NCBI GenBank assembly: GCA_040768745.1
Contig: JAXGMI010000001.1
Coordinates: forward strand, 1,216,001-1,280,000
Direction of reading: 5' to 3'
From: Desulfomicrobium sp.
GTDB lineage: Bacteria > Desulfobacterota > Desulfovibrionia > Desulfovibrionales > Desulfomicrobiaceae
Length of the DNA stretch: 64,000 nucleotides
Positions 45,925 through 64,000 of the stretch are shown here, piece by piece. Positions within the stretch are counted from its first letter, which is position 1. Each line of letters begins with the position of its first letter. The notes under the pieces are model-generated. The model saw nothing but the letters and a program-made list of their open reading frames with translations. It made no database searches and was not told where the DNA came from. The position numbers and the translations under genes are program-made.

Positions 45925-46080
45925 TATGTTCTGCATAACACCTTCGGGTGTAAGGGAATCCGGTGCAAGCCCGGAACGGTCCCGCCGCTGTGACCCTGCA
46001 CATGCCGCGCATCACATGCCACTGCCGATTCCGGTGGGAAGGCGATGTGTGGCGGGGGAGTCAGAAAACCTGCCTGAAGC
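45925..46080 (+). ncRNA. Cobalamin (AdoCbl) riboswitch
   Basis: AAGGGAATCCGGTGCAAGCCCGGAACGGTCCCGCCGCTGTGA...GCCACTG...GGGAAGGC...GAGTCAGAAAACCTGCC (B12 box). Preceded by TTGCGG-17-TATACA at 45893-45921. Ends are approximate. Confidence 0.9.
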
Positions 46081-46149
46081 ATTTCTCGTAACCCTCTGCA
46101 CGCGGATGCAGGGTGTTGGGACATTCACCAATCATCACGTTGAGAACTC

Positions 46150-46773
46150 ATGGCTGACACGACCCCGGCCTGGGAGCGCGTGCGCGGCATTGTCCCGGTA
46201 AGTCTTTGCGACTGGCCGGGAAAGATCGTGTGCGTCCTTTTTGCCGGAGGATGCAACCTGCGCTGCCCGACATGCCACAATCCGACCCTGGCCTGGAACT
46301 GGCAGATGCTGCCGACCCTTGGCCGCGATGGAGTGTTGACTGACTTGCGTCGCCGCAGGCGCTGGCTGGACGGACTCACCCTATCGGGAGGCGAGCCGAC
46401 AGCTTTGGAAGGGCTGGAGGAGCTGCTGAACGATCTGGCCGCAGCCGGTCTGCCCATCAAACTGGATACCAACGGCTCTGCTCCGGCGGTGTTGGAGCGG
46501 TTGTTGCGTGCCGGCCTGGTCCAGACCCTGGCCGTGGACGTGAAAGGTCCGTGGGAGTTGTACCCGGACTTAACCGGCCAGACAATGTCGGCCATGGATG
46601 CGTTGGGCCGCCTGGAGCAGATCTTCGAGTTGGCCCGGGAGTTTCCGGATCGGATTTACTTCCGCTGCACCAAGGTGCCGCGCCTTTCGGAAGCCGACCT
46701 TGTCCGGACCAGGGCCCAGGTCCCGTCGGATCTGCCCCTTGTGTTTCAGGATTTCGTTCCGGCGATGACGTGA
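46150..46773 (+). CDS. nrdG: Anaerobic ribonucleotide reductase activating enzyme (radical SAM)
   Basis: SLCDWPG...GCNLRCPTCHN (CxxxCxxC), SGGEPT, KLDTNGS, DVKGP. Confidence 0.9.
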   Translation: MADTTPAWERVRGIVPVSLCDWPGKIVCVLFAGGCNLRCPTCHNPTLAWNWQMLPTLGRDGVLTDLRRRRRWLDGLTLSGGEPTALEGLEELLNDLAAAGLPIKLDTNGSAPAVLERLLRAGLVQTLAVDVKGPWELYPDLTGQTMSAMDALGRLEQIFELAREFPDRIYFRCTKVPRLSEADLVRTRAQVPSDLPLVFQDFVPAMT

Positions 46774-46815
46774 TTTTTCGTGAACCCAGTACTGCCGACC
46801 AAAATTGGAGAATAC

Positions 46816-48876: not shown

Positions 48877-49023
48877 GGTCGCTCACTATCCGGGAATCAG
48901 ATATCAATGAACGGCCGGGCTGGGTTGCAGTCCGGCCGTTTCGCGTTTTCATCCGCCCTGCCGCGGTGCGTCAGCCGTGCTGCTCAAGGATGCCGAAGGC
49001 AGGTGGTGCGGGAAATCGTCTGG

Positions 49024-49737
49024 TCACTTGTTAACCAGCGAGAATTTTTTGAGCTGCACGGCGCCCGGCGGGGGTTGCTCCACATAATGCGGCCACTGGG
49101 CGCTCTCGACATAAAAGATGCTCGAATCCCGATACAGGTAGGAGCCCTGGTAGGTGAAGGAGGAGTTGACCTGGATTTCGCCGTCAGGAGTCTGGGCCGA
49201 GAATTGGCCACTTTCCTCGGCGACCAGGGGGAGGGGCCGATAGGCACCCTGGTCGTCCTTGAGCTGCCTGAATCCTGGCTCCAGGGACATCCGCACACCC
49301 TCCGCGGTCTTGGTCAGGGTGCGGGCATGGGCGAGAAAATTGACATTGACCTCCAGGATAATCGCCCCTTCAGGGGAGGGGGCTGTTGGCACACCGTACG
49401 CCACGAGGTGGGTGAGCAGGGACTCCCGCAGGGCCTTTGCAAAGGGCGTATGGCCAGCTTGAGGGACAAAGACCGCAACCCCGCCCTGGGGGAAAAAATG
49501 CCCCAACGCTTTGCTGCCGTGTTCGGCCACCTTGGCGGCCAGGTTGTCCCAATGCTGCAGGGCCTGCATCTTGGGTTGGGTGCTGAGCAGGTATCCGGTG
49601 GGGACAGGTACCTGGGCTGTGGCCATCAGGCGCGCATTGCTTGAGTCCGTCCGCAGGGACGAACACCCGACCAGGGCGTTATGAACCAGCAGGACCAGCA
49701 GGATCATGGGCGTGAAGAACTTGGTGTCTTTGTTCAT
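49024..49737 (-). CDS. Hypothetical lipoprotein
   Basis: Signal peptide with lipobox LVGC; QPKMQALQHWD.LA motif. Divergent from a FlgO-like gene. Confidence 0.65.
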   Translation of the reverse strand: MNKDTKFFTPMILLVLLVHNALVGCSSLRTDSSNARLMATAQVPVPTGYLLSTQPKMQALQHWDNLAAKVAEHGSKALGHFFPQGGVAVFVPQAGHTPFAKALRESLLTHLVAYGVPTAPSPEGAIILEVNVNFLAHARTLTKTAEGVRMSLEPGFRQLKDDQGAYRPLPLVAEESGQFSAQTPDGEIQVNSSFTYQGSYLYRDSSIFYVESAQWPHYVEQPPPGAVQLKKFSLVNK

Positions 49738-49783
49738 GCTGAAGGAATCGGCGAAAACGGGAAAAACTTTAGACGCAGCGGGT

Positions 49784-49799
49784 TGGCACAGGGTGTGCT
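49784..49799 (+). promoter_or_regulatory. Sigma54 promoter
   Basis: TGGCAC-AGGGT-GTGCT with correct GG-N10-GC spacing, about 40 bp upstream of ATG 49841. Confidence 0.6.
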
Positions 49800-49840
49800 T
49801 TGCAAGTGCCGGATGTCATTTTTTTGCCGGAGGGTCCATC

Positions 49841-50413
49841 ATGCCCAAATTCTTTGCCGCTATTTTTCTCGTCATCCTGGCCGCATGCACGTCTTTGACG
49901 GGCATCACCCCGGCTGATTCAGGGAACAGTGAACCCAACCTGATGGAGGTGTCCTACAAAGCCGCCGACCATCTGCACGGGCAACTGGCCGGCAGCGGGG
50001 TGGCCGCATATCCCATGCTGGCAGCTGCGTTTGTCGATTCGGCCGATGTCGGGATCACCAATGATGCAGGTCGCCTCATTTCGGAACAGATCGCCTCACG
50101 TTTGAGCCAGCTCGGCTATTCACTGGCCGAAGTCCAACTGCGGGCGGATCAGCTGGCCGTGCTGCCCGGGGGTGGGGTCTTTGCCCTGTCCAGGGATCTG
50201 ACCCGGATCAATGCCGACGCATACGCCTATTCCATCCTGCTCGGGACGTATACGGTCGTTGGCCGCCAGATTTACTTCAATGCCAGGGTGTTGCGGACCA
50301 GCGATGGCGTGGCTCTGGCCTCGTCTGACTTTTCCCTGCCGTATGTCCGCCTGCCCCGCTCTGCGCGCGGGAGTGTCGTCGCCCTGCCGTCGGTCGGTAC
50401 CCGGCTGGAATGA
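49841..50413 (+). CDS. FlgO family outer-membrane lipoprotein
   Basis: Lipobox LAAC; GRLISEQIASRLSQLG...FALSRD...ILLGTY...NARVL...G..LAS. Confidence 0.7.
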   Translation: MPKFFAAIFLVILAACTSLTGITPADSGNSEPNLMEVSYKAADHLHGQLAGSGVAAYPMLAAAFVDSADVGITNDAGRLISEQIASRLSQLGYSLAEVQLRADQLAVLPGGGVFALSRDLTRINADAYAYSILLGTYTVVGRQIYFNARVLRTSDGVALASSDFSLPYVRLPRSARGSVVALPSVGTRLE

Positions 50414-50459
50414 TTTTTTGAGTTGGAGGTCCCTTTCGGGCTTGTTTTTAAGTCTCCCA

Positions 50460-50485
50460 TGACATATTATAATTAACATATGTCA
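50460..50485. promoter_or_regulatory. Palindromic candidate operator upstream of tupA
   Basis: TGACATAT-N10-ATATGTCA enclosing a TATAAT hexamer. Confidence 0.6.
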
Positions 50486-50508
50486 CACTTCACCTATTGG
50501 GAGGAATT

Positions 50509-51375
50509 ATGCGAAAAATTCTGGCATTGGTGCTTTTCCTGTTGGCATTTCCGGCTCTGGTCTGCGCCCAGGATCAGGTTCTCAAGATGTCCACCACCAC
50601 CAGCACGGAACAGTCTGGCCTGCTGGGGGTCCTGCTGCCCGAGTTCAAGAAGGACACGGGCATAGACGTCAAGGTCCTGGCCAAGGGTACGGGAGCGGCA
50701 ATCAAGGATGGGGAGGACGGCAATGTGGACGTGATCTTCGTGCACGACCCTGCGCGCGAGGAAAAGTTCGTGGCCTCCGGCTTTGGGACCAAGCGCTACT
50801 ACGTCATGTACAATGACTTTCTCATTATCGGCCCGGCCTCTGACCCGGCCAAGGCCAAAGGCAAGGATGGAGCCGCGGCAATGAAGAAGATCGCCGAGTC
50901 CGGCGCGGTGTTCGTGTCCCGCGGCGATGCCAGCGGCACCCATGCCAAGGAGCAGGAACTTTGGAAGGCCACCGGTCTGGCCCTGAAGGAAGAGGAGACG
51001 ATCTTGAAGGATATGACCGTCAAGGCGGTCCACCCCGATCAGATGAAGGGCTATATGTCCATTGGACAGGGCATGGGCAAGACCCTGGTTTTTGCCGAGG
51101 AAAAGCAGGGCTACACCATCACGGACCGTGGCACGTATATCCAATACAAGTATGGCCGTCCGGAGAGCCTGCAGCTTGAGCCCATCTCTGAAGGCGATGT
51201 CAAGCTGTTCAATCCCTACGGGGTCATCCCGGTCAATCCTGCCAAACACCCCCACGTCCGGTTCGACCTGGCTGACAAGTTCGCCCAGTGGCTGGTGTCC
51301 GAACGCGGACAGAAGGTCATCGGTGACTACAAACTTCTTGACAAGCAGCTTTTCTTTCCTGACGCGAAGAAGTGA
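50509..51375 (+). CDS. tupA: Tungstate ABC transporter substrate-binding protein
   Basis: TTTS signature (STTTSTEQSGLL), GTGAA, VH, MYNDF, FVSRGD.SGTH, DRGTY, LFNPY. Confidence 0.92.
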   Translation: MRKILALVLFLLAFPALVCAQDQVLKMSTTTSTEQSGLLGVLLPEFKKDTGIDVKVLAKGTGAAIKDGEDGNVDVIFVHDPAREEKFVASGFGTKRYYVMYNDFLIIGPASDPAKAKGKDGAAAMKKIAESGAVFVSRGDASGTHAKEQELWKATGLALKEEETILKDMTVKAVHPDQMKGYMSIGQGMGKTLVFAEEKQGYTITDRGTYIQYKYGRPESLQLEPISEGDVKLFNPYGVIPVNPAKHPHVRFDLADKFAQWLVSERGQKVIGDYKLLDKQLFFPDAKK

Positions 51376-51410
51376 TCGGCACGACTGACATGCCGTTGCA
51401 CAGCAAATGA

Positions 51411-51441
51411 TAATCGGCCCGCCACCAGAGCGGGCCGATTA
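51411..51441 (+). other. Intercistronic hairpin between tupA and tupB
   Basis: TAATCGGCCCGC-N7-GCGGGCCGATTA. Confidence 0.55.
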
Positions 51442-51485
51442 TTCCCTGGGGGTTCGACCCGCTTTCTTCCCTGAGGTTTTTTGTC

Positions 51486-52178
51486 ATGTATTTTTTTGAC
51501 AGCTTGTATTCCGCATTGATGCTGCTTGGTCAATTCGACGCCGAACTGCTGTTCATCGTCGGCGTGTCCCTAAACATCAGCTTCTGGTCCACGGTCGCGG
51601 CCTGTCTGGTCGGGATACCAATGGGATTCGTCATCGGCATCAGCAGTTTCCGCGGCAAACAAGCTGCGATCACTTTTTTCAATACCATGCTGGCCCTGCC
51701 CACCGTGGTCATCGGCCTGGTCGTCTATACCCTGCTGTCCCGGCGTGGGGTGTTCGGCTCCCTTGGCTGGCTCTATACCCAGAAAGCCATGATCATCGGC
51801 CAGATCATACTCATCACCCCCATCATCGTGGCCTTCACCATTGCGGCCGTAGGCCGCATCGACGACCGCTACCGGCGCACAGCCCTGGCCCTGGGCGCAT
51901 CATCCTGGCAGGTGGCCATGGTCATCCTGCGCGAGGCCCGCTTCAGCATCATGGCCGCAGTGGTGGCCGCCTTCGGGCGGGTCATTTCCGAGATCGGCAT
52001 CTCCATGATGCTCGGCGGCAACGCCAAGGGATTCACCCGGACCATGACCACGGCCATGGCCCTGGAATACGACAAGGGCGAGTTCGTGCTTTCCCTGGCC
52101 CTGGGCATCGTCCTGCTGGCCATCAGCCTGACCGTGAACACTGCCCTGGGTTATGTGCAGGGGAAGACGTTGCGATGA
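51486..52178 (+). CDS. tupB: Tungstate ABC transporter permease
   Basis: LPTVVIGL...LSRRG..G, AFGRVISEIG.SMMLGGN...TRTMTTA...E...G. Confidence 0.92.
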   Translation: MYFFDSLYSALMLLGQFDAELLFIVGVSLNISFWSTVAACLVGIPMGFVIGISSFRGKQAAITFFNTMLALPTVVIGLVVYTLLSRRGVFGSLGWLYTQKAMIIGQIILITPIIVAFTIAAVGRIDDRYRRTALALGASSWQVAMVILREARFSIMAAVVAAFGRVISEIGISMMLGGNAKGFTRTMTTAMALEYDKGEFVLSLALGIVLLAISLTVNTALGYVQGKTLR

Positions 52179-53179
52179 ATATCTATACCCTCTCGCAAGT
52201 GTCGGTAACCCATGGCGGCAGGCGGATCCTTGATGTCGATGCTCTTTCCCTGGAGCGGGGTCTGACCTATTCCCTGCAGGGCCCCAACGGGGCTGGAAAA
52301 TCCACTCTGCTCGGGATCCTGTCTTTTTTGAGCCCGCCCCACGATGGCGAGGTCCGTTTCGAGGATACGCCCGTGGTGTGGACCGAAACATACCTCAGGC
52401 CTTTGCGGCGGCAGGTGGGTCTGGTGGATCAGCATCCGGTCATGTTCAGCCGCAGCGTACGGGAAAATGTGGGGTTCGGCCTGAAAATGCGTGGCTACTC
52501 CGGGAAGGAACTGGACGATCGGGTGCTGCGGGCCCTGGACAGGGTCGGTCTGGCCCACATGGCCGATACCTTCGCGCCCCGCCTTTCCGGCGGAGAAACC
52601 CAGCGCGTGGCCATTGCCCGCGCCCTGGCATGCGAGACCAAGATTCTGCTTCTGGACGAGCCAACGGCCAGTGTGGATGCTCAGCATCGATCGGTCATTG
52701 AACAGATCGTTGCCGACCTGCGTGATGCCAGGGAGACGACCATCATCCTCTGCACACACAACCGCTATCAGGCCTGGGCCCTGTGCCCCAATGTCATTTA
52801 TCTTGAGGACGGGCGTTTGGCCACCAGACCCCTGACCAATTCATATGCCTGCGATTTTGTGGAACAGGATGGCCACACCTGGTGCCGGATTACGGATCGG
52901 TTCGGGGTCGCGGCTCCCTTTGCCGCCACAGGGCGTGGCCGGGTGGTCATCGAGCCCGAACGCGTGAAGGTTGCACCGGTCGCCCAGCCAGGTCTGAACA
53001 ATGGTGTTGTCACCCAGGTTCAGCTCGAGGCGGGGATCGTCTCCATGACCGTGGATCTGGGTTTGCCGTTATGCGTGCGCCTGGGGATGAAGGACTTTCA
53101 GAGTCTGAGCGCATGTGTGGGGGAACTGGTCCGGGTCGAAATATCTCCCGAGTCTGTTGATTTCTGCCGGAAATGTTGA
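52175..53179 (+). CDS. tupC: Tungstate ABC transporter ATPase with C-terminal TOBE-like extension
   Basis: GPNGAGKST, LSGGETQRVAIARA, LLLDEPTAS. Confidence 0.85.
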   Translation: MNIYTLSQVSVTHGGRRILDVDALSLERGLTYSLQGPNGAGKSTLLGILSFLSPPHDGEVRFEDTPVVWTETYLRPLRRQVGLVDQHPVMFSRSVRENVGFGLKMRGYSGKELDDRVLRALDRVGLAHMADTFAPRLSGGETQRVAIARALACETKILLLDEPTASVDAQHRSVIEQIVADLRDARETTIILCTHNRYQAWALCPNVIYLEDGRLATRPLTNSYACDFVEQDGHTWCRITDRFGVAAPFAATGRGRVVIEPERVKVAPVAQPGLNNGVVTQVQLEAGIVSMTVDLGLPLCVRLGMKDFQSLSACVGELVRVEISPESVDFCRKC

Positions 53180-53254: not shown

Positions 53255-53989
53255 TCAATTTCCGAGGTACATATAATTGTCGATGTCACATCTGAACCTG
53301 TATTTGTCCCCGCGATAGAGAGAATACGCATATTCAACGGCCCTGCCGGCATCGTTGAAAACAACGCTTTCGACCCACAGGCATGCATTCGTGCTGGAAA
53401 TTTTCAGAATCTTCCGGTCAGATTCCTCTGGCAGAATGGCCCCAATTTCCTGACTCGAATGCATCAGTTTCATTCCATACTCTTCCCGGATCACGTTGTA
53501 TAAAATACCGTTGAGATTCTTGTCCAATATGTCAGGAAACAATTCTTCAGGAAGATAGCAATGCTCCAGAACCAGAGGGACATTGTTGGCCAGCATCAGT
53601 CTTTTCAGAAATATGATCTGCTCTCCGGCCTGCAATCCCAATTTCTCTGCGGTCTCTTCACAGGGATCCTGGATCATTGCCTGGATCGTTTTGTATTTCG
53701 GCTCAAGCCCTGCCCTCACAATATCATCGTAGTACGTTGAGATGCCTGCCAGTGATCTGGTCAGCACAGGCGTTTTTTCCGAAAGGAGAAATGTCCCTTT
53801 CCCGCGTGTGCGGATCAGCATGTGGTTGTTGACCAGCTTATCAATGGCCTGCCGAACAGTCATCCTGTGGACATTGAACTTTGCAGCGATCTCTGTTTCA
53901 TTTGGTATTTTGTCTCCAGGAACAAAGACTTTGTTGCTTATCTGCTCTGAAAGCCAGTTGTATATCTTTACGTATTTCGCTTCTGACAT
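53255..53989 (-). CDS. GntR family regulator, HutC subfamily (wHTH + UTRA)
   Basis: PGDKIPNE.EIA.KFNVHRMTVRQAI...RGKGTF; C-terminal UTRA domain ending VEY..S.YRGDKYRF. Confidence 0.9.
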   Translation of the reverse strand: MSEAKYVKIYNWLSEQISNKVFVPGDKIPNETEIAAKFNVHRMTVRQAIDKLVNNHMLIRTRGKGTFLLSEKTPVLTRSLAGISTYYDDIVRAGLEPKYKTIQAMIQDPCEETAEKLGLQAGEQIIFLKRLMLANNVPLVLEHCYLPEELFPDILDKNLNGILYNVIREEYGMKLMHSSQEIGAILPEESDRKILKISSTNACLWVESVVFNDAGRAVEYAYSLYRGDKYRFRCDIDNYMYLGN

Positions 53990-54196
53990 GAACGGATCCT
54001 TTTCGAGTTTCCAGTGAGTGATTTTGAATTCCGTGATTTTTGTAAAAAATACTCAAGAGAATGAATCAAGATCACATTGATTCATCGGGTGTTCGGACAA
54101 ATCTATGCGGTCGGTCAGCCTGGCGTATCATCCGGTTGTCGTCCAGATCGGGGCGTGGACCGGTGCATGACTAAGTTCTCTCTATACTTTTTGATT

Positions 54197-54212
54197 AAAA
54201 GTCTAGACTTTT
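54197..54212. promoter_or_regulatory. HutC/PhnF-type operator upstream of the GntR gene
   Basis: Perfect palindrome AAAAGTCTAGACTTTT. The same core recurs at 56385, 56618 and 56675. Confidence 0.7.
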
Positions 54213-54278
54213 CGATGATTTTTATTGCACCTGCAGGATCGGTATGCCGCAGCGGCAGGGGCCAGCGGACTGCGAAAT

Positions 54279-54317
54279 AAGAACACCCCGGCGGGAATTT
54301 CCCGCCGGGGTGTTCTT
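54279..54317 (-). terminator. Terminator hairpin after xsc
   Basis: AAGAACACCCCGGCGGGAA-T-TTCCCGCCGGGGTGTTCTT. Confidence 0.75.
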
Positions 54318-54340
54318 GTACCGTATAACAGGCTGCGGAG

Positions 54341-56119
54341 TTAGCAGTTCATTTCGGGACGCATGTCCTCTTTCTTGATGCCGGCAACCACTTCAGGCTT
54401 CTTCATGGCGTCGCGGCGGAAAGGATCGCCCAGTTCCTGATTGAGGATGACCTCAATGAAGGTGGTCTGCTTGTTTTCCATCTGGTCCTTGATGGCCTTG
54501 GTCAGGGCAGCGTTCAACTCCTCGCGAGTTCTGACCTGAACACCCTTCATGCCGCAGGCTTCAGCGATTTTAGCATAGCTGGTATCGCGGTCCTGTTCAG
54601 TGCCGACAAAGTTGTCGTTGAACCAGAGCGTGGAATTACGCTTTTCAGCACCCCACTGGTAGTTTCTGAAGATGACCTGGGTGATGGGCGGCCACCATTC
54701 GCGACCGCAAGTGGTCATCTCGTTCATGGAGATGCCATAGGCACCATCACCGGCAAAGCCGACCACCGGGACGTCCGGGCAGGCGATCTTGGCGCCGATG
54801 ATGGCCGGGAAGCCGTAGCCGCAGGGGCCGAACAAGCCAGGGGCCAAGTACTTACGCCCTTCCTCGAAGGTCGGGTAGGCGTTGCCGATGGCGCAATTGT
54901 TGCCAATGTCGGAGGAGGTGATGGTATTCTTGGGCAGCACCTTCATGATTTCCCGCCAGGCCATTCTTACGGACATCAGGTTCGGGTCCTTGGCGCGGGC
55001 GCGCTGGTTCCAGGTAGTGCCCGGGTCGTCGTTTTCATGATCCATGGTGGCCAATTCAGCAGCCCACTGGGCCTTGGTCTTTTTGATCAGTTCTTCGCGT
55101 TCCTTGCGGCCCGCATCGCCGGCATTGGGGGTCAAGGCAGCGAGAATGCGTTTGGCCACGGGGGCGGCGCCACCCTGGATACCGACGGTGACGGGCTTGG
55201 TCAGGCCGATGCGGTCGGCGTTGATGTCGACCTGGATCAGCTTCACGTTCTTCGGCCAGTAGTCCATGTTGTAGCTGGGCAGGGTCGAGAAGGGGTTGAG
55301 CCGGGTGCCCAGGGCCAGGACCACATCGGCCTTGCTGATCAGTTCCATGGCGGCCTTGGACCCGTTGTAACCCAGGGGGCCCGCAAACAGGGGATGGGAG
55401 CCGGGGAAGGCGTCGTTGTGCTGGTAGTTGCAGCAGACCGGAGCGCTGAGGCGTTCGGCCAGGGCCTTGGATGCATCGATGGCATTGCCGACGATGACAC
55501 CATAGCCGTTGAGGATGACCGGGAACTTGGCGTTGGAAAGCAGTTTTGCGGCTTCGGCAATGGCTTCGTCACCGCCGGAGGGATGTTCGAAACGGACGAT
55601 CTGCGGCAATTCGATATCGACGACCTGGGTGAACATGTCGCGGGGAATGTTGATCTGTGCCGGGGCGGAAAAACGACGGGCTTTTTCGATGACGCGGTTG
55701 AGCACCTCGGCGACGCGGGAGGGATCACGCACTTCTTCCTGGTAGCAGACCATGTCCTGGAACAGGGCCATCTGGGGAATCTCCTGGAATCCACCCTGTC
55801 CGATGGTTTTGTTGGCGCACTGGGGGGTGATCAGCAGCAGGGGGGTGTGGTTCCAGTAAGCGGTTTTGACCGGGGTGACCAGGTTGGTGATGCCAGGGCC
55901 GTTCTGGGCCACGATCATGGACATCTTGCCCGAGGAGCGAGTGTATCCGTCGGCCATCATGCCGGCGTTACATTCGTGGGCGACGTCCCAGAAGGTGATG
56001 CCTGCGCTGGGGAAAAGGTTGGAAATCGGCATGAAGGCGGAGCCGATAATGCCGAAACCGTGCTCGATTCCCTGCATTTGCAGAACTTTGACGAATGCTT
56101 CTTCTGTGGTCATTCTCAT
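54341..56119 (-). CDS. xsc: Sulfoacetaldehyde acetyltransferase (ThDP-dependent)
   Basis: MTTEEAFVKVLQ..GIEH.FGIIGSAFM, AQNGPGITN, GPLGYNGSKAAM, SDIGNNC, GDGA...N ThDP motif, QWGAEKRN, ELGDPFRRDAM are characteristic of Xsc. Confidence 0.93.
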   Translation of the reverse strand: MRMTTEEAFVKVLQMQGIEHGFGIIGSAFMPISNLFPSAGITFWDVAHECNAGMMADGYTRSSGKMSMIVAQNGPGITNLVTPVKTAYWNHTPLLLITPQCANKTIGQGGFQEIPQMALFQDMVCYQEEVRDPSRVAEVLNRVIEKARRFSAPAQINIPRDMFTQVVDIELPQIVRFEHPSGGDEAIAEAAKLLSNAKFPVILNGYGVIVGNAIDASKALAERLSAPVCCNYQHNDAFPGSHPLFAGPLGYNGSKAAMELISKADVVLALGTRLNPFSTLPSYNMDYWPKNVKLIQVDINADRIGLTKPVTVGIQGGAAPVAKRILAALTPNAGDAGRKEREELIKKTKAQWAAELATMDHENDDPGTTWNQRARAKDPNLMSVRMAWREIMKVLPKNTITSSDIGNNCAIGNAYPTFEEGRKYLAPGLFGPCGYGFPAIIGAKIACPDVPVVGFAGDGAYGISMNEMTTCGREWWPPITQVIFRNYQWGAEKRNSTLWFNDNFVGTEQDRDTSYAKIAEACGMKGVQVRTREELNAALTKAIKDQMENKQTTFIEVILNQELGDPFRRDAMKKPEVVAGIKKEDMRPEMNC

Positions 56120-56384
56120 AAAAATACTCCTTGTAATGGCCTCGTTAAGGGTTTGTACCTACGTTGCTCTTCAAGTCTCGAAAGGTTCTCCATCTTGCGT
56201 CCCGATGTGCCGGGCTGGATCATTCCGAAACTTTTAATTCCTGACGGTGTGTCCCGCTGACAAGGCGGTCGTGACAGATTTTCAAAACATCTCTCGTTAC
56301 GATGTGGAAAATCAGTCCATGGATGTGGCGACCCAGGCTTTCCCATCGCGTTATGGATCGGAAATAGCTCGGTCCAGAAAAAAT

Positions 56385-56682
56385 GTCTAGACTAAATTTT
56401 GATTGTCATCGAAAAAAAATCCATATTCCGCGCGAAAGTTGGATGCCCGCATTCCTGTTTCACATAAATTTCAATAAAAATGAATAGAATAGTTCTAGTC
56501 ATAATTTTTGGCTCAAAAATGGGCTCGAAAAAACAAATGGAAAGTAGAAATGTAACATGCTGGAAAACATGGATAAAAAATAACTGCAATCCGGGTGTGA
56601 TTTTTTTCTCAAAAAATGTCTAGATTTTTTTAAAAATCAGCTTGACAGGAAAAGAGCGTGCTCGATAGTACTAGGTCTAGAC
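56385..56682. promoter_or_regulatory. Divergent xsc/tpa control region with three GTCTAGA(C/T) operators and a sigma70 -35
   Basis: GTCTAGAC 56385-56392, GTCTAGAT 56618-56625, GTCTAGAC 56675-56682. TTGACA at 56642-56647 lies between the last two. The region is AT-rich. Confidence 0.7.
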
Positions 56683-56816
56683 AAATGTGGCAACCCGAGG
56701 TTTCTGGTGCAGGCAGGGAAAGCCGAGCCGCCTCTGTCTCAAAACAAATTTCTGCGAGACAGGCAAACGTGGCGAGTGGCAGCGTGTTTCTCACTTTTAA
56801 ATCAAGGAGTAGGGCT

Positions 56817-58196
56817 ATGGGCCAGGGCAAGAATCTTGACGCCTCTAAGTATATCGAAGCCGATAAGGCGCATGTGTGGCATCATCTTTTGCAGCATCAG
56901 GCGATTGCTGCCAAGGGACCGATGATTGTCGTCGAGGGGACGGGCCTCCGGATTAAGGATGTCAATGGCAAGGAGTACCTGGATGCCACCTCTGGCGGGG
57001 TGTGGTGTGTGAATGTGGGCTACGGCCGCGACAGCATCGCCAACGCCGTGTGCGAGCAGTTGAAGAAAATGCCCTACTACGCGGGCACCGCGGGCAACAT
57101 TCCGCATATCGAATATTCCGAGAAGCTGATTGGCTACATGCCCGGGCTGTCCAGGGTCTATCTGTCCAACAGCGGTTCCGAGGCCAACGAGAAGGCCTTC
57201 AAAATGATCCGCTCCCTGGCGCACATCAAAGGGAACCCCGAGAAGAAGAAGATTATTTTCCGCAACCGCGACTATCACGGGACGACCATCGCCGCCCTCA
57301 GCGCCACGGGCCAGCCCGAGCGCAAGGAGTGGTTCGGGCCTTTCGTGCCTGGTTTCGTCGAATTCCCGCATGCATGCTGCTACCGTTGCGCCTTCAACAA
57401 GACCTATCCCGGGTGCAACATCGAATGTGCCAGGGCCCTGGAGACGGTCATTAAAGAGGAAGGTCCGGACACAGTGGGCGGCGTGATCGTGGAGCCCATC
57501 ACCGCCGGTGGCGGCGTCATCCCGCCGGTGCCCGAGTATTATCCCATTCTGCAGGAAATCTGCCGCAAGTACGATGTGCTGCTGATCATGGACGAGGTGG
57601 TCTGCGGAGTTGGCCGTACCGGCAAAATGTTCGGCTACCAGAACTACGACGTCAAGCCCGATATCGTGACCATGGCCAAGGGTGTGGCCAGTGCGTACAT
57701 GCCCATTTCCGTGACGGTGACCACCGAAGAAGTCTTCCGCTCTTTCCTGCATGATCCCGCCGACCCGATGAGCTACTTCAGGGATATCAGCACATTCGGC
57801 GGCTGCGCCGGCGCCTGTACCGCTGCCATCGAGAACCTGAACATCATCGAGCGGGAGAATCTCCTCGAAAACGTGACGAACATGGGACAGTACATGATCG
57901 AAGGCCTGCGCGACCTTCTCGAGCTGCCCAATGTCGGTGACGTACGTGGCCGGGGTCTTTTCTGCGGAGTGGAAATGGTTGTGGACAAAAAGACCAAGCA
58001 GCCAGCCCCCGAAGGGAAGGTGGCCCAGATCGCCGGGGAAATGGCCGCCAATGGCGTCCTGGTCGGGCGGACAAACCGCAGTCTCCCTGGTCTGAACAAC
58101 ACCATCAACCTTGCCCCCGCCTATGTCGCCACCAAGGCAGACATCGACATCATCGTCTCGACGCTGCGCAAGGCAATCACCAAGATTTTTGCATAA
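56817..58196 (+). CDS. tpa: Taurine:pyruvate aminotransferase (class III PLP)
   Basis: DKAHVWHHLLQH, LDATSGGVWCVNVGYGR, SRVYLSNSGSEANEKAFK, RDYHGTT, DEVVCG.GRTG, TMAKGVAS, YFRDISTFGGC closely follow Tpa as recalled. Context: xsc and ald. RBS AAGGAG. Confidence 0.88.
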   Translation: MGQGKNLDASKYIEADKAHVWHHLLQHQAIAAKGPMIVVEGTGLRIKDVNGKEYLDATSGGVWCVNVGYGRDSIANAVCEQLKKMPYYAGTAGNIPHIEYSEKLIGYMPGLSRVYLSNSGSEANEKAFKMIRSLAHIKGNPEKKKIIFRNRDYHGTTIAALSATGQPERKEWFGPFVPGFVEFPHACCYRCAFNKTYPGCNIECARALETVIKEEGPDTVGGVIVEPITAGGGVIPPVPEYYPILQEICRKYDVLLIMDEVVCGVGRTGKMFGYQNYDVKPDIVTMAKGVASAYMPISVTVTTEEVFRSFLHDPADPMSYFRDISTFGGCAGACTAAIENLNIIERENLLENVTNMGQYMIEGLRDLLELPNVGDVRGRGLFCGVEMVVDKKTKQPAPEGKVAQIAGEMAANGVLVGRTNRSLPGLNNTINLAPAYVATKADIDIIVSTLRKAITKIFA

Positions 58197-58260
58197 CATC
58201 GGGCGCTAAAGCGCTGATGTATGTAATTGATACTGTAACTACTCAGTGAGGAAACAAAAA

Positions 58261-59376
58261 ATGATCGTTGGAGTTCTGAAAGAGATCAAGGCACAAGAAA
58301 ACCGCGTCTGCATGACCCCGAGCGGCGTGGAAGTGTTGAAACAGAACGGGCACACCGTTCTGGTGGAAACTGCAGCCGGTGTGGGCAGCAACTTTTCCGA
58401 TGACCAATACAAGGCGGCCGGCGCGACCATCGTCTCCACCCCGGCCGAAGTGTATGCCAAGTCCGACATGGTCATGCACGTCAAGGAGCCGCTGCCTTCC
58501 GAGTACGGCATGGTCCGTCCCGGTCAGATCGTGTTCACCTATTTTCATTTCGCGGCAGACGAAAAGTTGACCCGTGAGTTCATGAAGACCGGCTCCGTCT
58601 CCATCGCCTACGAGACCGTGACCGGCCCGAACGGCATGGGCCTGCCCCTGCTGACTCCCATGAGCGAAGTCGCCGGTCGCATGGCGGCCCAGGAAGCGGC
58701 CAAATACAACGAGCGCGTGCATGGCGGCCGCGGCATCCTGCTCGGCGGTGTGACCGGTGTTGCCCCGGCCACCGTCCTGGTCCTGGGTGGCGGCATCGTC
58801 GGCACCAATGCGGCCTTGATGGCTGCAGGCCTGGGCGCCCGCGTCTTCATCCTGGACATGAACCTGGACCGCCTGCGCTACCTGTCCGAGGTCATGCCCA
58901 AGAACGTCACCCCGCTGATGAGCTCACCGTCCGTGGTACGCGAGCTGTCCAAACAGGCCGACGCCATCATCGGCGCGGTTCTGGTGGTTGGCGCCAAGGC
59001 CCCCAAGCTGGTCACCCGCGCCATGCTGAAGGACATGAAACCCGGTTGCGTGATGGTCGACGTGGCCATTGACCAGGGTGGCTGCTTCGAGACTTCCAAG
59101 CCCACGACCCATTCCGATCCGGTTTACGAGGTTGACGGCATCATCCACTACTGCGTGGCCAACATGCCCGGCGGCGTGCCCAGCACCTCGACCATGGCCC
59201 TGACCAACGCCACCCTGCCCTATGCCGTGCAGATCGCGAACAAGGGCTGGAAGCAGGCCTGCCTGGACAGCCCGGGTCTGAAGAACGGCCTGAACATGGT
59301 CGGCGACAAGATCACCTTCAAGGGTGTGTCCGATGCCTTTGGCCTGCCGTACACCCCTGCTGACAGCGTACTGTAG
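58261..59376 (+). CDS. ald: Alanine dehydrogenase
   Basis: GVLKEIKAQENRV, VKEP, FTYFH, LLTPMSEVAGR, DVAIDQGGC.ETS.PTTH, HYCVANMPG. Confidence 0.96.
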   Translation: MIVGVLKEIKAQENRVCMTPSGVEVLKQNGHTVLVETAAGVGSNFSDDQYKAAGATIVSTPAEVYAKSDMVMHVKEPLPSEYGMVRPGQIVFTYFHFAADEKLTREFMKTGSVSIAYETVTGPNGMGLPLLTPMSEVAGRMAAQEAAKYNERVHGGRGILLGGVTGVAPATVLVLGGGIVGTNAALMAAGLGARVFILDMNLDRLRYLSEVMPKNVTPLMSSPSVVRELSKQADAIIGAVLVVGAKAPKLVTRAMLKDMKPGCVMVDVAIDQGGCFETSKPTTHSDPVYEVDGIIHYCVANMPGGVPSTSTMALTNATLPYAVQIANKGWKQACLDSPGLKNGLNMVGDKITFKGVSDAFGLPYTPADSVL

Positions 59377-59459
59377 GATTTCTTACAACAAAGAGCTGGG
59401 AGGGACATCATGAAGTTGCATACGCGCCAAGGATGTCACTCCCCCAGCAGCCAGAATAT

Positions 59460-59502
59460 GGCCCGCTTTCTTTTCGTTACGTAAAGGAGGCGGGCCTTTT
59501 TT
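59460..59502 (+). terminator. Rho-independent terminator after ald
   Basis: GGCCCGCTT...AGGCGGGCC followed by a T-run. Confidence 0.7.
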
Positions 59503-59783
59503 TGGATTTTTGTACTGGTGTATCACTGACAAGATCAATTGTGACACGCAATACTGCTGTTTGAGTAGAGAGGAAAGAAATTCCTCGTTTTGAAAGAATA
59601 CTACTTTTTATGTATTGTTTTTATATTGTTGCGTATTTATTTTTTATGAATACTATTTTCTCCTGTAGTGAATCAATTTTATTTTTATAATTACGATTTA
59701 TATGAACATATTTGCGTATGAGCGCGTCTCCTCCTCAACTCGACGCATGAACAGATATATTCTAACCCAAGACCGGAGGAAAA

Positions 59784-60332
59784 ATGGTTAAAAAATTCTT
59801 CACATCTTTGCTCGACCATTTTGAAAGCTATATTTGCCAAGTACTTCTTGTTTTCTTTGTGGTCATACTGTTTGTTCAGATTGTTCTGCGGGCCATCAAC
59901 ATGTCGTTGTCCTGGACAGAAGAGATCGCACGCTACGCCTTTCTGTGGTTCATCCTGTTTGGCGCCTGCTACGCCACCCGTCTTGCATGCCTGAACCGCG
60001 TCACCATGCAGTTCGCCAAATTTCCCAAATGGGTCACTTCCGCATCTCTTCTTCTCAGCGATTTTGTGTGGTTCTGCTTCTGCCTGGCCATGGCCTGGTA
60101 CGGGTACAAGGCGTACATGGACCTGGTGGAATTCCCCTACCATACCCCGGCCCTGGATTGGGACCTGAGCAGGATTTACCTCGTATTTCCCATCAGCTTT
60201 CTGCTCATGGCCATCCGGATCATCCAGGTCAATGTCATCAAATATGTGCTGAAGGAAGAACTTGTCGACCCGGAACAGGAGGCCCTGAAGGAGAGTCAGA
60301 AAACCCTCATCGCACACGAAGGAGGTGAGTAA
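59784..60332 (+). CDS. dctQ: TRAP transporter small permease (DctQ/TauL-like)
   Basis: 4 TM; QIVLR...SLSWTEEIARYAFLW..FG. Confidence 0.9.
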   Translation: MVKKFFTSLLDHFESYICQVLLVFFVVILFVQIVLRAINMSLSWTEEIARYAFLWFILFGACYATRLACLNRVTMQFAKFPKWVTSASLLLSDFVWFCFCLAMAWYGYKAYMDLVEFPYHTPALDWDLSRIYLVFPISFLLMAIRIIQVNVIKYVLKEELVDPEQEALKESQKTLIAHEGGE

Positions 60333-61639
60333 TGGGCGCGATATCCCCCGCCGAAGTTGCATTGGTGCTGTTTGGCGTTTTCTTTGCCGTGCTTCTCATC
60401 GGCAGTCCGATCATGGTGGCCCTGGGCGTCGCGGCCATGGCCTCCTTTGCCATGGTGGGAACGGACCTCGGGGCCATGATCGAAATGGCGGCTTCATCCT
60501 TGACATCCTTTCCGCTTATGGCGCTGCCGTGCTTTGTGCTGGCAGGGTCGCTCATGGAGGCCGCCGGAGTTTCGCGAAGGCTGGTGCATATCGCCGAGAA
60601 CATCGTCGGCCCGATTCCGGGCGGTCTGGCCGTCTCCACTGCGCTGGCCTGCGTGTTTTTCGGGGCCATTTCCGGCTCGGGCCCGGCCACGACCGCGGCT
60701 GTGGGCATGCTCATGATCCCGGCCATGGTCAACCGCGGGTATGACAAGGGGTACGCGGCCGCCGCAACGGCAACTGCCGGCGGAATCGGCATCATCATTC
60801 CGCCGAGCATACCCATGGTCATTTACGGTGTTTCCGGTCAGCAGAGCATTGCCAAAATGTTCATGGGCGGGTTCATTCCCGGCACAATGATCGCTCTGGC
60901 TTTCAGTGCCGCGCATCTGTATTTTTGCAGAAATCTCGATACCAGCGGGCTGCAGCGTTGGTCTGTATCCAGCCTGCTGCGGGCGCTGAAGGACGGCATT
61001 TGGTCCATGCTGGCGCCCATAATCATCCTGGGCGGCATTTACGCTGGGTTCTTCACGCCGACCGAAGCCGCCGTAGTCGCCATTTTCTATACCCTCTTCG
61101 TGGGCGTATTCATTCACAGGGAATTGAAATTCCATGAATTCATGAGCGCATTGAAGACAACGTCGTGGCTCACTGGCCGAGTCCTGGTCATTGTCTTCAC
61201 CGCATATGCCTTTGGCCGTCTGCTGACCGAGTACCGCATCCCCATAATGATTGCGGACTGGATACTGGGATTTACAACCCAGGTGTATGTGGTGTGGTTC
61301 TTTGTTGTCGCTCTGCTCATCTTCCTGGGCATGTTCATGGAAACATTGGCCATAATCCTGCTGGTGACGCCGGTGCTCCTGCCTGTCATGGTCGCCTATG
61401 GAGTCGATCCCATTCACTTCGGTGTTGTCTTGATCTGCTGCGTGGCTGTTGGTTTCTCCACTCCTCCCCTTGGGGAAAACATTTTCATCGCATCCGGCAT
61501 CTCGGATATGTCTCTCGAACAAATCGCGTTGAAAGCCCTGCCCTTTGTTTTGATCAACATCGCTGTCATAGCGCTATTGATCATCTTCCCGGATCTTGTC
61601 CTGTATTTGCCGAGCCTGATTGATGTCACTCTGCAATAA
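60332..61639 (+). CDS. dctM: TRAP transporter large permease (DctM/TauM-like)
   Basis: SFPLMALP.FVLAG, FGAISGSG.AT, IIPPSIPMVIYG, GFFTPTEAA, GVDPIHFG, TPPLG. Confidence 0.93.
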   Translation: MGAISPAEVALVLFGVFFAVLLIGSPIMVALGVAAMASFAMVGTDLGAMIEMAASSLTSFPLMALPCFVLAGSLMEAAGVSRRLVHIAENIVGPIPGGLAVSTALACVFFGAISGSGPATTAAVGMLMIPAMVNRGYDKGYAAAATATAGGIGIIIPPSIPMVIYGVSGQQSIAKMFMGGFIPGTMIALAFSAAHLYFCRNLDTSGLQRWSVSSLLRALKDGIWSMLAPIIILGGIYAGFFTPTEAAVVAIFYTLFVGVFIHRELKFHEFMSALKTTSWLTGRVLVIVFTAYAFGRLLTEYRIPIMIADWILGFTTQVYVVWFFVVALLIFLGMFMETLAIILLVTPVLLPVMVAYGVDPIHFGVVLICCVAVGFSTPPLGENIFIASGISDMSLEQIALKALPFVLINIAVIALLIIFPDLVLYLPSLIDVTLQ

Positions 61640-61740
61640 TGGTGTTGGTGTTTTGTGGAATGGAGACATATGCGCAGGTTCAATTTCGGGAGTGGTTCTC
61701 GACCAGGGGCCTTGGCGCAAATAACTGCAAGGAGATTTGA

Positions 61741-62748
61741 ATGAAAAGAAGCATCGTTCTCATCGTGATGGCATTGTTCGTCGTCTGTTCAACGGCCGCA
61801 TGGGCCGCTCCGAGTCTGGTTCTCAAAATGGCTGCCGGCGATCCCAAGGATTCGGAAATGGGCGTGGTCGGGGATGCGTTCAAGAAATACGTCGAAGAGA
61901 AATCCAAAGGCGCCATAGAGGTTCAGACTTTTTATTCCGGAGCCCTTGGCGATGAAACCGAAACCATCCACAACGTGCGACGCGGCACCCTGGACCTGAC
62001 CTGCGTGGGCATTGCCAACGCCGTTCCTTTCGTCAAGGAACTGGGCATGCTGACCCTGCCCTACATGTTCAGCAACCTGGATGAAGTTGTGGCGGCCACG
62101 AATGGCGAGTCGGCAAAAATCCTGACTGACTATTCTCTGAAAGGCGGTTTCCGTCCCCTGACCTGGACCTATACCGACTTCCGCTACATTTCCAATGCCA
62201 AGCGTCCCATCACGAAAATGTCTGATGTCGTGGGCTTGAAGTTCCGCGTGCCCCAGAGCGCCGTGCTGCTTGCCGCCTACAAGTCCTGGGGCGCCAGCCC
62301 GGTTCCGATCTCCTGGGCGGAAACCTTCACCGCCCTGCAGCAGGGCGTGGTCGACGGCCAGTGCTATGGCTACATCGGATTCCGGGCCATGAAGTTCAAT
62401 GAGGCCAACCAGAAGTATATCACGGAGATCCACTATACCTATCAGCTGCAACCGCTGCTCATGAGCGAACGCGTGTTCAAGAAGATGACCCCTGAGCAGC
62501 AGCAGCTCATGATCGATGCGGGCAAGGCCGCGCAGGATGCAGTGCTCAAGTACCAGATCGAACAATCCTCCAAGGCCAAAGAAGACCTTGTCAAGGTGGG
62601 GGTTGTGGTCTCCCAGCTGGAAAATGAAGAGGAGTGGAAAAAGGCGGCTGTGGGAAAGGTGTGGCCAGAGATGGCAGATTTTGTCGGCGGCAAGGACGCC
62701 ATCAATGCATTCCTGAAGAGCTTCGGCAAGCCGGAGTGGAAGCCTTAA
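61741..62748 (+). CDS. dctP: TRAP transporter substrate-binding protein (DctP/TauK-like)
   Basis: Signal peptide; LPYMF, GLKFRVP, WGASPVPISWAETFTALQQGVVDGQ. Confidence 0.92.
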   Translation: MKRSIVLIVMALFVVCSTAAWAAPSLVLKMAAGDPKDSEMGVVGDAFKKYVEEKSKGAIEVQTFYSGALGDETETIHNVRRGTLDLTCVGIANAVPFVKELGMLTLPYMFSNLDEVVAATNGESAKILTDYSLKGGFRPLTWTYTDFRYISNAKRPITKMSDVVGLKFRVPQSAVLLAAYKSWGASPVPISWAETFTALQQGVVDGQCYGYIGFRAMKFNEANQKYITEIHYTYQLQPLLMSERVFKKMTPEQQQLMIDAGKAAQDAVLKYQIEQSSKAKEDLVKVGVVVSQLENEEEWKKAAVGKVWPEMADFVGGKDAINAFLKSFGKPEWKP

Positions 62749-62814
62749 CTCACTGAAGAGTTTGCCGGTCCGACTTCGCAGGAAGCTGGACCGGCAAGTT
62801 TCATGGGAGAATGT

Positions 62815-63645
62815 ATGTCACACGCCTCTTCTGACGAGCCTTTCTCCTGTTTGCAGGCCGTCGTCATGGACTGGGCCGGCACGACAGTTGATTTCGGTTG
62901 CCAGGGCCCGGTGCAGGCCTTTGTGGAATGCTTTGCTGCTTTTGGGGTTGAGGTAACCGTGGCCGAAGCCCGGGAGCCCATGGGTATGGGTAAAAGGGAA
63001 CACGTGGCCGCCATGTGCGCCATGCCGCGCATAGCCGATGCGTGGAGGACGGTGCATGGAGCGCCCCCATCCGTTGCGGATATCGATCGTATCTACAAGC
63101 GGGTGGAAAGCGTCATGGTCGAAGTCATCCAGCGCTACAGTGTGCCCATGCCAGGTGTGGTGGATGCCGTGGCGGCCATGCGGCGGCAGGGACTGCGCAT
63201 TGGTTCCTGCACAGGGTATCCCAGGTCCGTGGGCGAGATTCTCGCGGAACGCGCCCGGGAATTTGGTTATGAGCCTGATGTGCTGGTCTGTGCGACTGAT
63301 GTGTCCCACGGCAGGCCGGAGCCTGACATGTGTTTGAAGGCACTGAAGGACATGAACCTTCAGGACCCTGCCCGGGCCGTGAAGATCGGCGATACGGTCA
63401 ATGATGTCCTTGAAGGGCTGCGGGCCGGAATGTGGGTGATAGGGCTGACTTTGTCCGGGAGTCTGGCCGGCTTGACAGAGGAAGAGCTGCGGCAGCTCCC
63501 TGAAGCGCAGAAGTGGCTGATGCACAACAAGATTGGTGACCTTCTGGCGAATGCCGGAGCGCATTTCACCGCGCCGGATCTGCCTTCGTGTCTCTCCATT
63601 CTGAGCAAAATAGACGAGCACTGCCAGAATAACTACACGCCATAA
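62815..63645 (+). CDS. phnX: Phosphonoacetaldehyde hydrolase (phosphonatase, HAD family)
   Basis: DWAGTTVDFG nucleophile motif, AREPMGMGKREH with the Schiff-base Lys, IGSCTGY, GRPEP, VKIGDTVNDVLEGLRAGMW. Confidence 0.93.
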   Translation: MSHASSDEPFSCLQAVVMDWAGTTVDFGCQGPVQAFVECFAAFGVEVTVAEAREPMGMGKREHVAAMCAMPRIADAWRTVHGAPPSVADIDRIYKRVESVMVEVIQRYSVPMPGVVDAVAAMRRQGLRIGSCTGYPRSVGEILAERAREFGYEPDVLVCATDVSHGRPEPDMCLKALKDMNLQDPARAVKIGDTVNDVLEGLRAGMWVIGLTLSGSLAGLTEEELRQLPEAQKWLMHNKIGDLLANAGAHFTAPDLPSCLSILSKIDEHCQNNYTP

Positions 63646-63789: not shown

Positions 63790-63824
63790 GGGCCTTTGGA
63801 CCGATGTCCAGGGCCCTTTTTTTT
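63790..63824 (+). terminator. Rho-independent terminator downstream of phnX
   Basis: GGGCCTTTGGAC-CGAT-GTCCAGGGCCC followed by T8. Confidence 0.65.
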
Positions 63825-64000
63825 CGCAGTTTTTGGCTGCAGTTTTCGGCACCTACCCATAAATAAGCCTGCTTTGTGCCGGATTGGCGAAATTCCCTCC
63901 GCCTTGTGCGCAGGAGGGCACCCCAAGTTTGACAGCAATATCGAGCTTATTTGTTTAAAATTAGGATATTATCGCTTCGGCGCTAGTTGGAGTTTACACT

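Follow-up and report, generated by a model that had tools for sequence, protein, structure and literature searches.

The window, a 64,000-nucleotide stretch of Desulfomicrobium sp. DNA, contains a phosphonoacetaldehyde hydrolase gene (phnX) within a cluster that likely respires taurine via Tpa, Ald and Xsc, and the linkage of phnX to xsc was found to recur in other genomes far above chance. We propose, with a probability of roughly 55%, that PhnX removes phosphonoacetaldehyde, formed when the sulfonate entry enzymes act on phosphonate analogues, and would thereby protect Xsc. A preliminary description of this DNA had put forward one TRAP importer and one aminotransferase feeding two nutrients, with clearance of phosphonoacetaldehyde that could inhibit Xsc as an alternative. 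This proposed alternative fits the comparative data better than dual use does.

All eight open reading frames were recovered where the preliminary description had placed them. On the reverse strand are a gene for a GntR/HutC-type (UTRA) regulator (53255..53989; PF00392 and PF07702) and xsc, encoding sulfoacetaldehyde acetyltransferase (EC 2.3.3.15; 54341..56119; TIGR03457 score 904.9, cut-off 676.4). The Xsc protein has three TPP Pfam domains, its ThDP domains are full-length, it is 75% identical to the annotated Xsc of Cereibacter and Paracoccus, and it likely turns sulfoacetaldehyde into acetyl phosphate with release of sulfite. On the forward strand, a class III aminotransferase gene (56805..58196; PF00202; NF005812 score 495.8, cut-off 488) is followed by the alanine dehydrogenase gene ald (58246..59376, likely start 58258; TIGR00518 score 493.3, cut-off 391.85), the TRAP genes dctQ (small subunit, 59784..60332; PF04290), dctM (large subunit, 60332..61639; TIGR00786 score 380.5, cut-off 268.45) and dctP (binding protein, 61741..62748; PF03480), and phnX (62815..63645; TIGR01422 score 308.7, cut-off 220). 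No NCBIfam model gives the aminotransferase the name Tpa, and no solved Tpa turned up for comparison; it is nevertheless likely to be taurine:pyruvate aminotransferase, judging from its family, its context and its 56-94% identity to genes in other clusters with xsc or tpa-ald. An assignment as PbfA was discarded, given that the PbfA model reached only 240 of 525. Tpa converts taurine to sulfoacetaldehyde, Ald recycles alanine to pyruvate, and Xsc yields sulfite and acetyl phosphate, the sulfite being reduced by DsrAB. The class III aminotransferase, ald and xsc are accompanied in the genome by a sulfite sink, dsrA.

The phnX gene begins 66 bp past the dctP stop, at a likely start of 62815 preceded by GGGAGA. 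Co-transcription of the two genes is supported by digester RNA, in which contigs bridged both genes in 4 of 4 runs; the depths of these contigs and their gaps in cover (in the xsc-tpa spacer, in gntR and beyond phnX) were given no weight. A terminator-like hairpin with a run of 7 T follows ald (59460..59503, forward strand; hairpin 59460-59496, -24.3 kcal/mol), suggesting that dctQMP-phnX is a separate unit. A strong GC-rich hairpin without a clear T run lies between dctP and phnX (62755..62802, forward strand); all four dctP-phnX spacers that were folded have a hairpin in the same place (-24.5 to -39.8 kcal/mol), which likely reduces the phnX message relative to that of dctP. The terminator noted previously after phnX was also located, as a terminator-like site (63790..63825, forward strand) with a hairpin and T run at 63794-63813. 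The promoter and terminator scan as a whole gave no excess over shuffled sequences.

The earlier statement that the catalytic motifs of PhnX are intact held up in an alignment to the Bacillus cereus enzyme, in which D12, C22, M49, G50, K53, H56, T126, G127, Y128, R160, D186 and D190 of B. cereus PhnX were all matched. D19, K60, H63, T133-G134-Y135, R167, D193 and D197 of the window protein align with their B. cereus counterparts, which we take to be the Asp nucleophile, the cap Lys and His, the Thr-Gly-Tyr motif, the Arg and the two Mg-binding Asp. PhnX converts phosphonoacetaldehyde to acetaldehyde and Pi, and from its sequence the window protein likely does the same. It is encoded by the sole phnX copy in this genome (genome-wide search; genome 99.99% complete). 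All 16 active-site positions checked were retained in 31 of 32 xsc-linked PhnX proteins, and a column scan found no active-site column that distinguishes xsc-linked from phnW-linked PhnX, which indicates an ordinary PhnX substrate. Moreover, a single-clade origin of xsc-linked PhnX was rejected (AU p 5.3e-7; tree of 11 xsc-linked and 25 other rows), and a PhnX tree of 113 rows contained 7 label changes, at least 5 of them forced. The tree and the column scan together ruled out a specialised xsc-linked subfamily. One Peribacillus phnX copy (L151) is broken into two overlapping frames.

Conservation of the linkage was evident in 28 distinct loci besides the window (all fetched loci, excluding two duplicate rows of one genome, G059) in which phnX lies within 9 kb of xsc. 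The two genes are adjacent on one strand in 19 of them; 15 loci have a Tpa-like gene, 6 have SauS and none has phnW. Related genomes in these counts are kin and not independent. Within the genus, 7 of 24 other genomes carry phnX, and the same 7 carry xsc. Across 261 sampled genomes of family f6, the 46 phnX copies comprise 30 beside phnW and 16 beside xsc, with none beside both and none beside neither; four genomes (G657, G683, G738 and G455) retain the xsc-linked copy alongside a phnW-phnX operon. When the loci were compared, phnX adjoined xsc more often than tpa or an importer, and where it does so tpa is frequently in another operon; in five genomes of genus g16, xsc-phnX stands on its own, with tpa-ald on a different contig in 4 of 4 checked. 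Importers at xsc-linked phnX loci are of the TRAP, ABC, TTT or APC type, and entry is by taurine or by sulfoacetate. Six loci combine phnX with the sulfoacetate route (SauCD/SauS), in a second architecture, xsc-sauS-sauCD-tctABC, with a GRE closest to isethionate sulfite-lyase. In four genomes of this type (88-99% complete), searches for Tpa (at 1e-60) and for PhnW gave no match. Because importers and entry routes vary, Xsc is the constant partner of PhnX, rather than the importer or Tpa. In the window itself, phnX comes after the importer genes and is separated from xsc by 6.7 kb, on the opposite strand, a point against the proposed protection of Xsc.

Broader sampling showed that PhnX is dispensable for the xsc pathway, since most xsc genomes are without phnX, and this counts against a role in clearing an inhibitor. 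Of 37 xsc genomes in a sample of 401 from the same phylum, 31 had no phnX; 5 of 8 xsc loci had none in a sample of the order Bacillales, whose centre genome was chosen for carrying phnX; and in 241 Pseudomonadota genomes the linkage occurred in 0 of 14 xsc genomes, including 2 with both genes. A scan of genome contigs took in 16 of 64 parts, and among the 80 of 592 matches listed, a sample, a PhnW-like gene accompanied 45, xsc accompanied 5 and both together accompanied none; a metagenome contig scan gave 19 loci, just two of them close, both short.

The ligand of DctP is likely taurine, as judged from its relatives. DctP is about 69% identical to proteins whose names refer to Bilophila and Mailhella, and in G017, G012 and G204 its orthologues neighbour tpa or xsc-tpa-ald with no phnX there. 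Its structure model was of high confidence (pLDDT 92), although the fold matches were tied and name no ligand; identity to IseP was 26%, tied with many DctP folds, and the best PDB sequence matches, 24GG and 24GH, are given without a ligand name.

The preliminary description had allowed for a phnW operon downstream that might claim phnX. No phnW was found just beyond base 64000, where an IS1634 transposase lies instead, nor elsewhere in the genome: the best genome-wide match to the PhnW model scored 163 of 360.8 bits and is a class V enzyme whose gene neighbours argC and polA. The genome also contained no PF01266 oxidase of the PbfD type (search at 1e-15), no match to a PbfA-like query taken from a putative frame of L210, no PepM, and hence no context for phosphonate synthesis of its own, and no PhnJ, and hence no C-P lyase context. 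It is rich in IS elements, one of them immediately downstream of phnX.

In the role that we propose, the importer and Tpa would let in some 2-aminoethylphosphonate (AEP), and SauCD/SauS at sulfoacetate-type loci would similarly admit phosphonoacetate. The resulting phosphonoacetaldehyde, an isostere of sulfoacetaldehyde, would form an adduct with ThDP, the cofactor of Xsc; this adduct would hardly expel its phosphorus group, and Xsc would stall. PhnX, co-produced with the pathway, would take the aldehyde away, and as a by-product AEP would be broken down to Pi, ammonium and acetaldehyde with no need for PhnW. Such slippage is plausible because SauCD of B. wadsworthia takes malonate at 7% and 3-sulfopropanoate at 20%; phosphonoacetate is absent from the substrates tried in the available portion of that report (PMC10413351). 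PhnX as a supplier of Pi for Xsc was considered as well; this is weak, and was ruled out on stoichiometry, because Pi is recycled through acetyl phosphate.

The main rival reading is selected dual catabolism, in which DctP and Tpa are deliberately broad, AEP provides P, N and electrons through Tpa and PhnX, and Xsc is unharmed. We regard this as possible but doubtful. It accords with a genome that has no other phosphonate route, with the position of phnX after dctP on shared RNA contigs, and with an AckA-like match and five AOR-like matches in the genome, which could use acetate units and acetaldehyde. G204 likewise carries phnX with a PhnS-like ABC importer and two Tpa homologues, without PhnW. 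In G017 and G012, phnX is found with a further copy of dctP, whose product is 71% identical to the tpa-linked DctP of the same genomes, and xsc is elsewhere (1.39 Mb away in G017); this favours an import-coupled role, against clearance on behalf of Xsc. However, the importer type differs between loci, the four sulfoacetate-type genomes described above lack a Tpa match and PhnW, four genomes retain the xsc-linked copy despite having a full phnWX operon, and phnX is beside xsc (19 of 28) oftener than beside tpa or an importer. The cluster spacers also lack a Pho box: none was present at 9 of 10 matches in the four spacers scanned, and as a control a perfect box was found ahead of phoB (window position 5087). 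This last point is weak evidence, because many phnWX operons are also Pi-independent. One importer and one aminotransferase feeding two nutrients thus finds no support as the principal account.

A different substrate for PhnX within the sulfonate pathway, either sulfoacetaldehyde (cleaved to acetaldehyde and sulfate as an overflow valve) or acetyl phosphate, would explain why phnX is so closely tied to xsc regardless of the entry route, including at the transaminase-free sulfoacetate loci, and would do so without environmental phosphonates. Yet xsc-linked PhnX shares its Schiff-base lysine, its cap histidine and every phosphonate-binding residue with canonical PhnX, about six lineages share no convergent change, and forming sulfate or wasting acetyl phosphate would presumably cost a sulfite respirer ATP; we consider this reading unlikely. 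Its specific form, cleavage of sulfoacetaldehyde by the same Schiff-base chemistry as an overflow beside Xsc, strikes us as very improbable, though such enzymes would be the first phosphonatases to hydrolyse a C-S bond. It is equally unlikely, in our judgement, that the place of phnX beside taurine genes is functionally meaningless, the gene being a mere passenger or its enzyme receiving substrate from an unrecognised enzyme encoded elsewhere. The lack of phnX in most xsc clusters, the IS-rich genome with an IS directly downstream, and the split Peribacillus copy would all suit such a gene, but the recurrence of the linkage disfavours it: about six independent PhnX lineages adjoin xsc, the phnX copies of family f6 that are not beside phnW are beside xsc in 16 of 16 cases, and reading frames and active sites are preserved.

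Among known systems, the taurine cluster of the sulfite-respiring anaerobe Taurinivorans muris LT0009 resembles the window in its Tpa, Ald, Xsc and DctPQM importers, with DsrAB and AckA, and the window adds PhnX; the main text of that report has no phosphonate term, and the tables of 11 of its 14 supplementary files have no phnX (PMC10507020). The PhnW-PhnX pathway for AEP and its PbfA and PbfB/C/D-PhnX variants employ the same PhnX family and active site, and PhnX can pair there with an aldehyde source other than PhnW, namely PbfD2; the window differs in having no PhnW, PbfA or PF01266 oxidase, with a class III taurine aminotransferase as candidate feeder and Xsc as neighbour, and the xsc-phnX pairing is not described in the available text (PMC10590968). 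The SauXYZ-SauCD-SauS pathway with Xsc or IseG matches the second architecture of the relatives, six of whose loci end in phnX, whereas the window itself has the taurine route; in the available text the word hydrolase occurs 0 times and phnX is not mentioned (PMC10413351). Targeted literature searches found no paper on the xsc-phnX pairing.

HAD-family hydrolases that serve in metabolite repair or house-cleaning are a known concept. The proposed role resembles theirs, in that an accessory hydrolase made along with a pathway clears an inhibitory analogue, and differs in that PhnX would break a C-P bond and shield a ThDP desulfonase. Among small natural compounds, taurine is the commonest sulfonate and AEP the commonest phosphonate, and the two co-occur in guts, sediments and digesters. 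If PhnX regularly accompanies Xsc, sulfonate respirers, gut-type sulfide producers among them, would cleave C-P bonds without PhnW and could degrade natural phosphonates; surveys that count phnW or demand phnWX would overlook such organisms and misread a lone phnX. It would also follow that phosphonoacetaldehyde, or its precursor AEP, inhibits the Xsc route to sulfide where PhnX is absent. The xsc-phnX pairing offers a cheap, direct handle on how the sulfur and phosphorus cycles influence each other.

Candidate regulatory elements were also present around the divergent genes. The palindrome GTCTAGAC occurs before gntR (54200..54209) and in the divergent spacer, on the side towards xsc (56384..56393); both sites are predicted as likely operators, the former for GntR, and presumably resemble those of the HutC family. 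A sigma70-like tpa promoter (56642-56669, forward strand), identified by consensus matches only, is flanked by two GTCTAGA(C/T) boxes (56617-56626 and 56674-56683; whole element 56617..56683). Allowing one mismatch, the 10-letter box showed no enrichment across the window as a whole (5 versus 2.2); exact octamers cluster locally, with 3 of the genome's 8 within 2.5 kb, and of these statistics the local clustering alone carries weight. Two such palindrome boxes are also present in the corresponding spacer of G005 (L041), and relatives of the GntR protein (58-64%) are encoded directly after xsc-phnX in genus g328 and in G657.

Linkage of phnX to xsc proved to recur well beyond the window. Besides the window, 28 distinct loci (two duplicate rows removed) held xsc and phnX within 9 kb of each other, with same-strand adjacency in 19, a gene for a Tpa-like class III aminotransferase in 15, SauS in 6 and phnW in none. 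Within the genus, phnX was present in 7 of 24 other genomes and xsc in the identical 7. When 401 genomes of the phylum were sampled, xsc was found in 37, phnX in 14, both in 6, and the two linked in 5. A sample of 261 genomes from one family of the same order as the window's organism, presumably Desulfovibrionaceae, contained 46 phnX copies in 43 genomes; phnW adjoined 30 copies and xsc 16 (for 2 of the 16, the evidence is an incomplete xsc where the contig ends), none having both or neither, in a tally that takes in six loci fetched separately. A scan over 16 of the 64 parts of the species-genome collection listed 80 of 592 matches; among these 80 phnX loci, a PhnW-like gene accompanied 45 and xsc accompanied 5, with no locus having both. 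The five belong to three Peribacillus-type genomes, Desulfofustis glycolicus and one Desulfobacteraceae bin. In the order of genome G455 (151 genomes), xsc occurred in 8, with phnX adjacent in 3, one being G455 itself, chosen as the centre of the sample. No linkage was found among 241 Pseudomonadota genomes (xsc in 14, phnX in 21), including the 2 carrying both genes. The xsc-phnX pairing is real and conserved, between known enzymes, and we regard it as improbable that phnX is a passenger gene. The pairing is apparently undescribed so far: targeted searches of open literature found no description of xsc or the taurine pathway together with phnX, and subscription papers may hold substrate tests.

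The layouts were diverse. They comprised the window type with its TRAP importer; xsc-sauS-sauCD-tctABC-phnX, often adjoining an isethionate-lyase-like glycyl radical enzyme; bare xsc-phnX, with tpa-ald on a separate contig; xsc-phnX-gntR opposite tpa-ald-ABC importer; APC permease-phnX-xsc-aminotransferase in Peribacillus; and xsc-tpa-ald-gntR-phnX in Desulfofustis. PhnW was absent from all 12 tested genomes with this xsc-plus-phnX pattern and present in 8 of the 13 remaining tested phnX genomes; four sulfoacetate-type genomes had no Tpa match either. Four genomes (G657, G683, G738 and G455) carried a phnW-phnX operon plus a separate xsc-linked phnX. The same cluster types also occur without phnX (G039, G204, G415, G029 and G032). 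In Peribacillus butanolivorans, the xsc-linked phnX is broken into two overlapping reading frames (L151:9995-10832).

In the window, ORFs were located where the preliminary description had placed the eight genes (53255..63645), and its 66-bp spacing between dctP and phnX was confirmed. Xsc, Ald, DctM and PhnX each passed curated models in profile searches, the aminotransferase passed NF005812, and the regulator was of the GntR-UTRA type by domain search. End-to-end alignment of PhnX with the B. cereus phosphonatase bore out the claim of intact motifs: every catalytic residue checked was kept. The expected terminator-like site follows phnX; a strong hairpin lies between dctP and phnX, 5' of the phnX start. 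With a second terminator-like site after ald, the cluster would comprise three units: xsc (and gntR), tpa-ald, and dctQMP-phnX. The exact GTCTAGAC palindrome occurs eight times in the genome, three of these around xsc and tpa and none upstream of dctQ, and two recur in the corresponding spacer of a compared genome (G005); on the basis of the GntR operator consensus, we read these palindromes as putative GntR operators. A scan of four spacers of the cluster detected no Pho box. Elsewhere in the window (5085-9154), a phoB-phoR-pstB-phoU run is preceded by a perfect Pho box, in which a pair of TGTCA repeats is spaced 11 bp apart.

The genome (3.09 Mb, 99.99% complete, dsrA present) contains a single phnX. 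Genome-wide searches detected no PhnW (best profile match, 163 of 360.8 bits), PF01266 oxidase, PepM or PhnJ. Where a phnW operon might have claimed phnX from directly downstream, IS1634 stands instead; given this element and the lack of PhnW, no other system claims the cluster phnX. The IS1634 transposase gene begins at the window's right edge, directly 3' of the phnX terminator (L001:4995-6665), and a matching copy lies inside an interrupted tctA gene (L204:8127-9797). In four digester metatranscriptome runs from one study, contigs covered xsc, tpa-ald and dctQM, and dctP-phnX was bridged in all four, a bridging contig being no proof of a single transcript. As a control, a region in which an IS interrupts a gene had almost no contig cover in the same runs, which speaks for an origin of the cluster contigs in RNA rather than DNA.

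Xsc-linked PhnX proteins shared 36-59% identity across layouts. A single clade of them was rejected (AU p 5.3e-7; 36-row subset, 11 vs 25). The 113-row FastTree phylogeny, which excludes the 36 rows labelled 'other' and in which long branches meet in places, contained 7 label changes, at least 5 of them forced by well-supported branches. All 16 checked positions were kept in 31 of 32 xsc-linked proteins, a set that takes in the window as well as three dctP-phnX loci with no xsc nearby (in G005 it is on a separate contig, in G012 and G017 at a long distance); the only column flagged was position 79, outside the active-site positions. By these comparisons, ordinary phosphonatases have become partners of xsc on several occasions, with no retuning visible, and their substrate is therefore most likely still phosphonoacetaldehyde; we regard action on a new substrate, such as sulfoacetaldehyde, as improbable.

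It is known that Tpa, Ald and Xsc convert taurine to sulfite, acetyl phosphate and ammonium (PMC6386719, PMC10507020), that PhnX yields acetaldehyde and Pi and can have feeders other than PhnW (PMC10590968), and that SauCD accepts malonate and 3-sulfopropanoate (PMC10413351). We favor, at a probability of roughly 0.55, the reading that PhnX removes phosphonoacetaldehyde arising in the sulfonate pathway and thereby spares Xsc. Sulfonate entry enzymes would slip on phosphonate analogues; phosphonoacetaldehyde would bind Xsc as the true substrate does, but without a good leaving group; and PhnX, co-produced with the pathway, would remove it. Such protection accounts for phnX keeping to xsc whatever the importer or entry route, as well as for the second phnX copies and the absent Pho box. 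Against it, the majority of xsc genomes lack phnX, and T. muris respires taurine via Xsc, no phnX being named in the 11 searched supplementary files (of 14) of PMC10507020. Selected dual use of both substrates, as proposed in the preliminary description, would involve identical chemistry and is favored by the pairing of dctP with phnX in the window and in G012 and G017; we consider it possible but distinctly less probable than protection of Xsc.

Several other loci were recorded. L074:2744-9997 (G204) holds phnX, GntR and a PhnS-like ABC importer; G204 has no PhnW and two Tpa homologues away from this phnX, making an unlinked Tpa-fed AEP route possible. In G370, which lacks PhnW and Xsc, a succinate-CoA-ligase-like gene pair directly precedes phnX (L085:3732-7034); this is either a candidate route through phosphonoacetate-CoA or proximity by chance. 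Relatives' tpa-ald operons (L179:5337-8390, L072:15248-17755) include transhydrogenase beta-subunit ORFs of 835-1017 aa in which 3-4 stretches match PNTB, as though the C-terminal domain were repeated. In the window's genome, L206:3341-12693 (contig C2, ~196-206 kb) encodes a second, TauABC-like importer, its permease 75% identical to one in the G039 xsc-tpa cluster, with an aldehyde dehydrogenase, a Rid-like protein and a D-serine-dehydratase-like PLP enzyme; this may represent a further importer of sulfonates or amines. L205:3948-17784 (contig C1, ~592-606 kb) is broken up by IS elements and encodes TTT and TRAP importers, a dehydrogenase and an unassigned ThDP enzyme 29% identical to Xsc. 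At L204:10107-16181 (C1, ~694-700 kb), a glycyl radical enzyme gene adjoining its activase is split in two; insertion-like ORFs separate and flank the parts, and RNA contig cover is almost nil. Left of the cluster (window 40385-53179), ORF reading and profile search identified genes for a Qrc-type respiratory complex, an anaerobic ribonucleotide reductase with its activase, and a TupABC-like tungstate importer.
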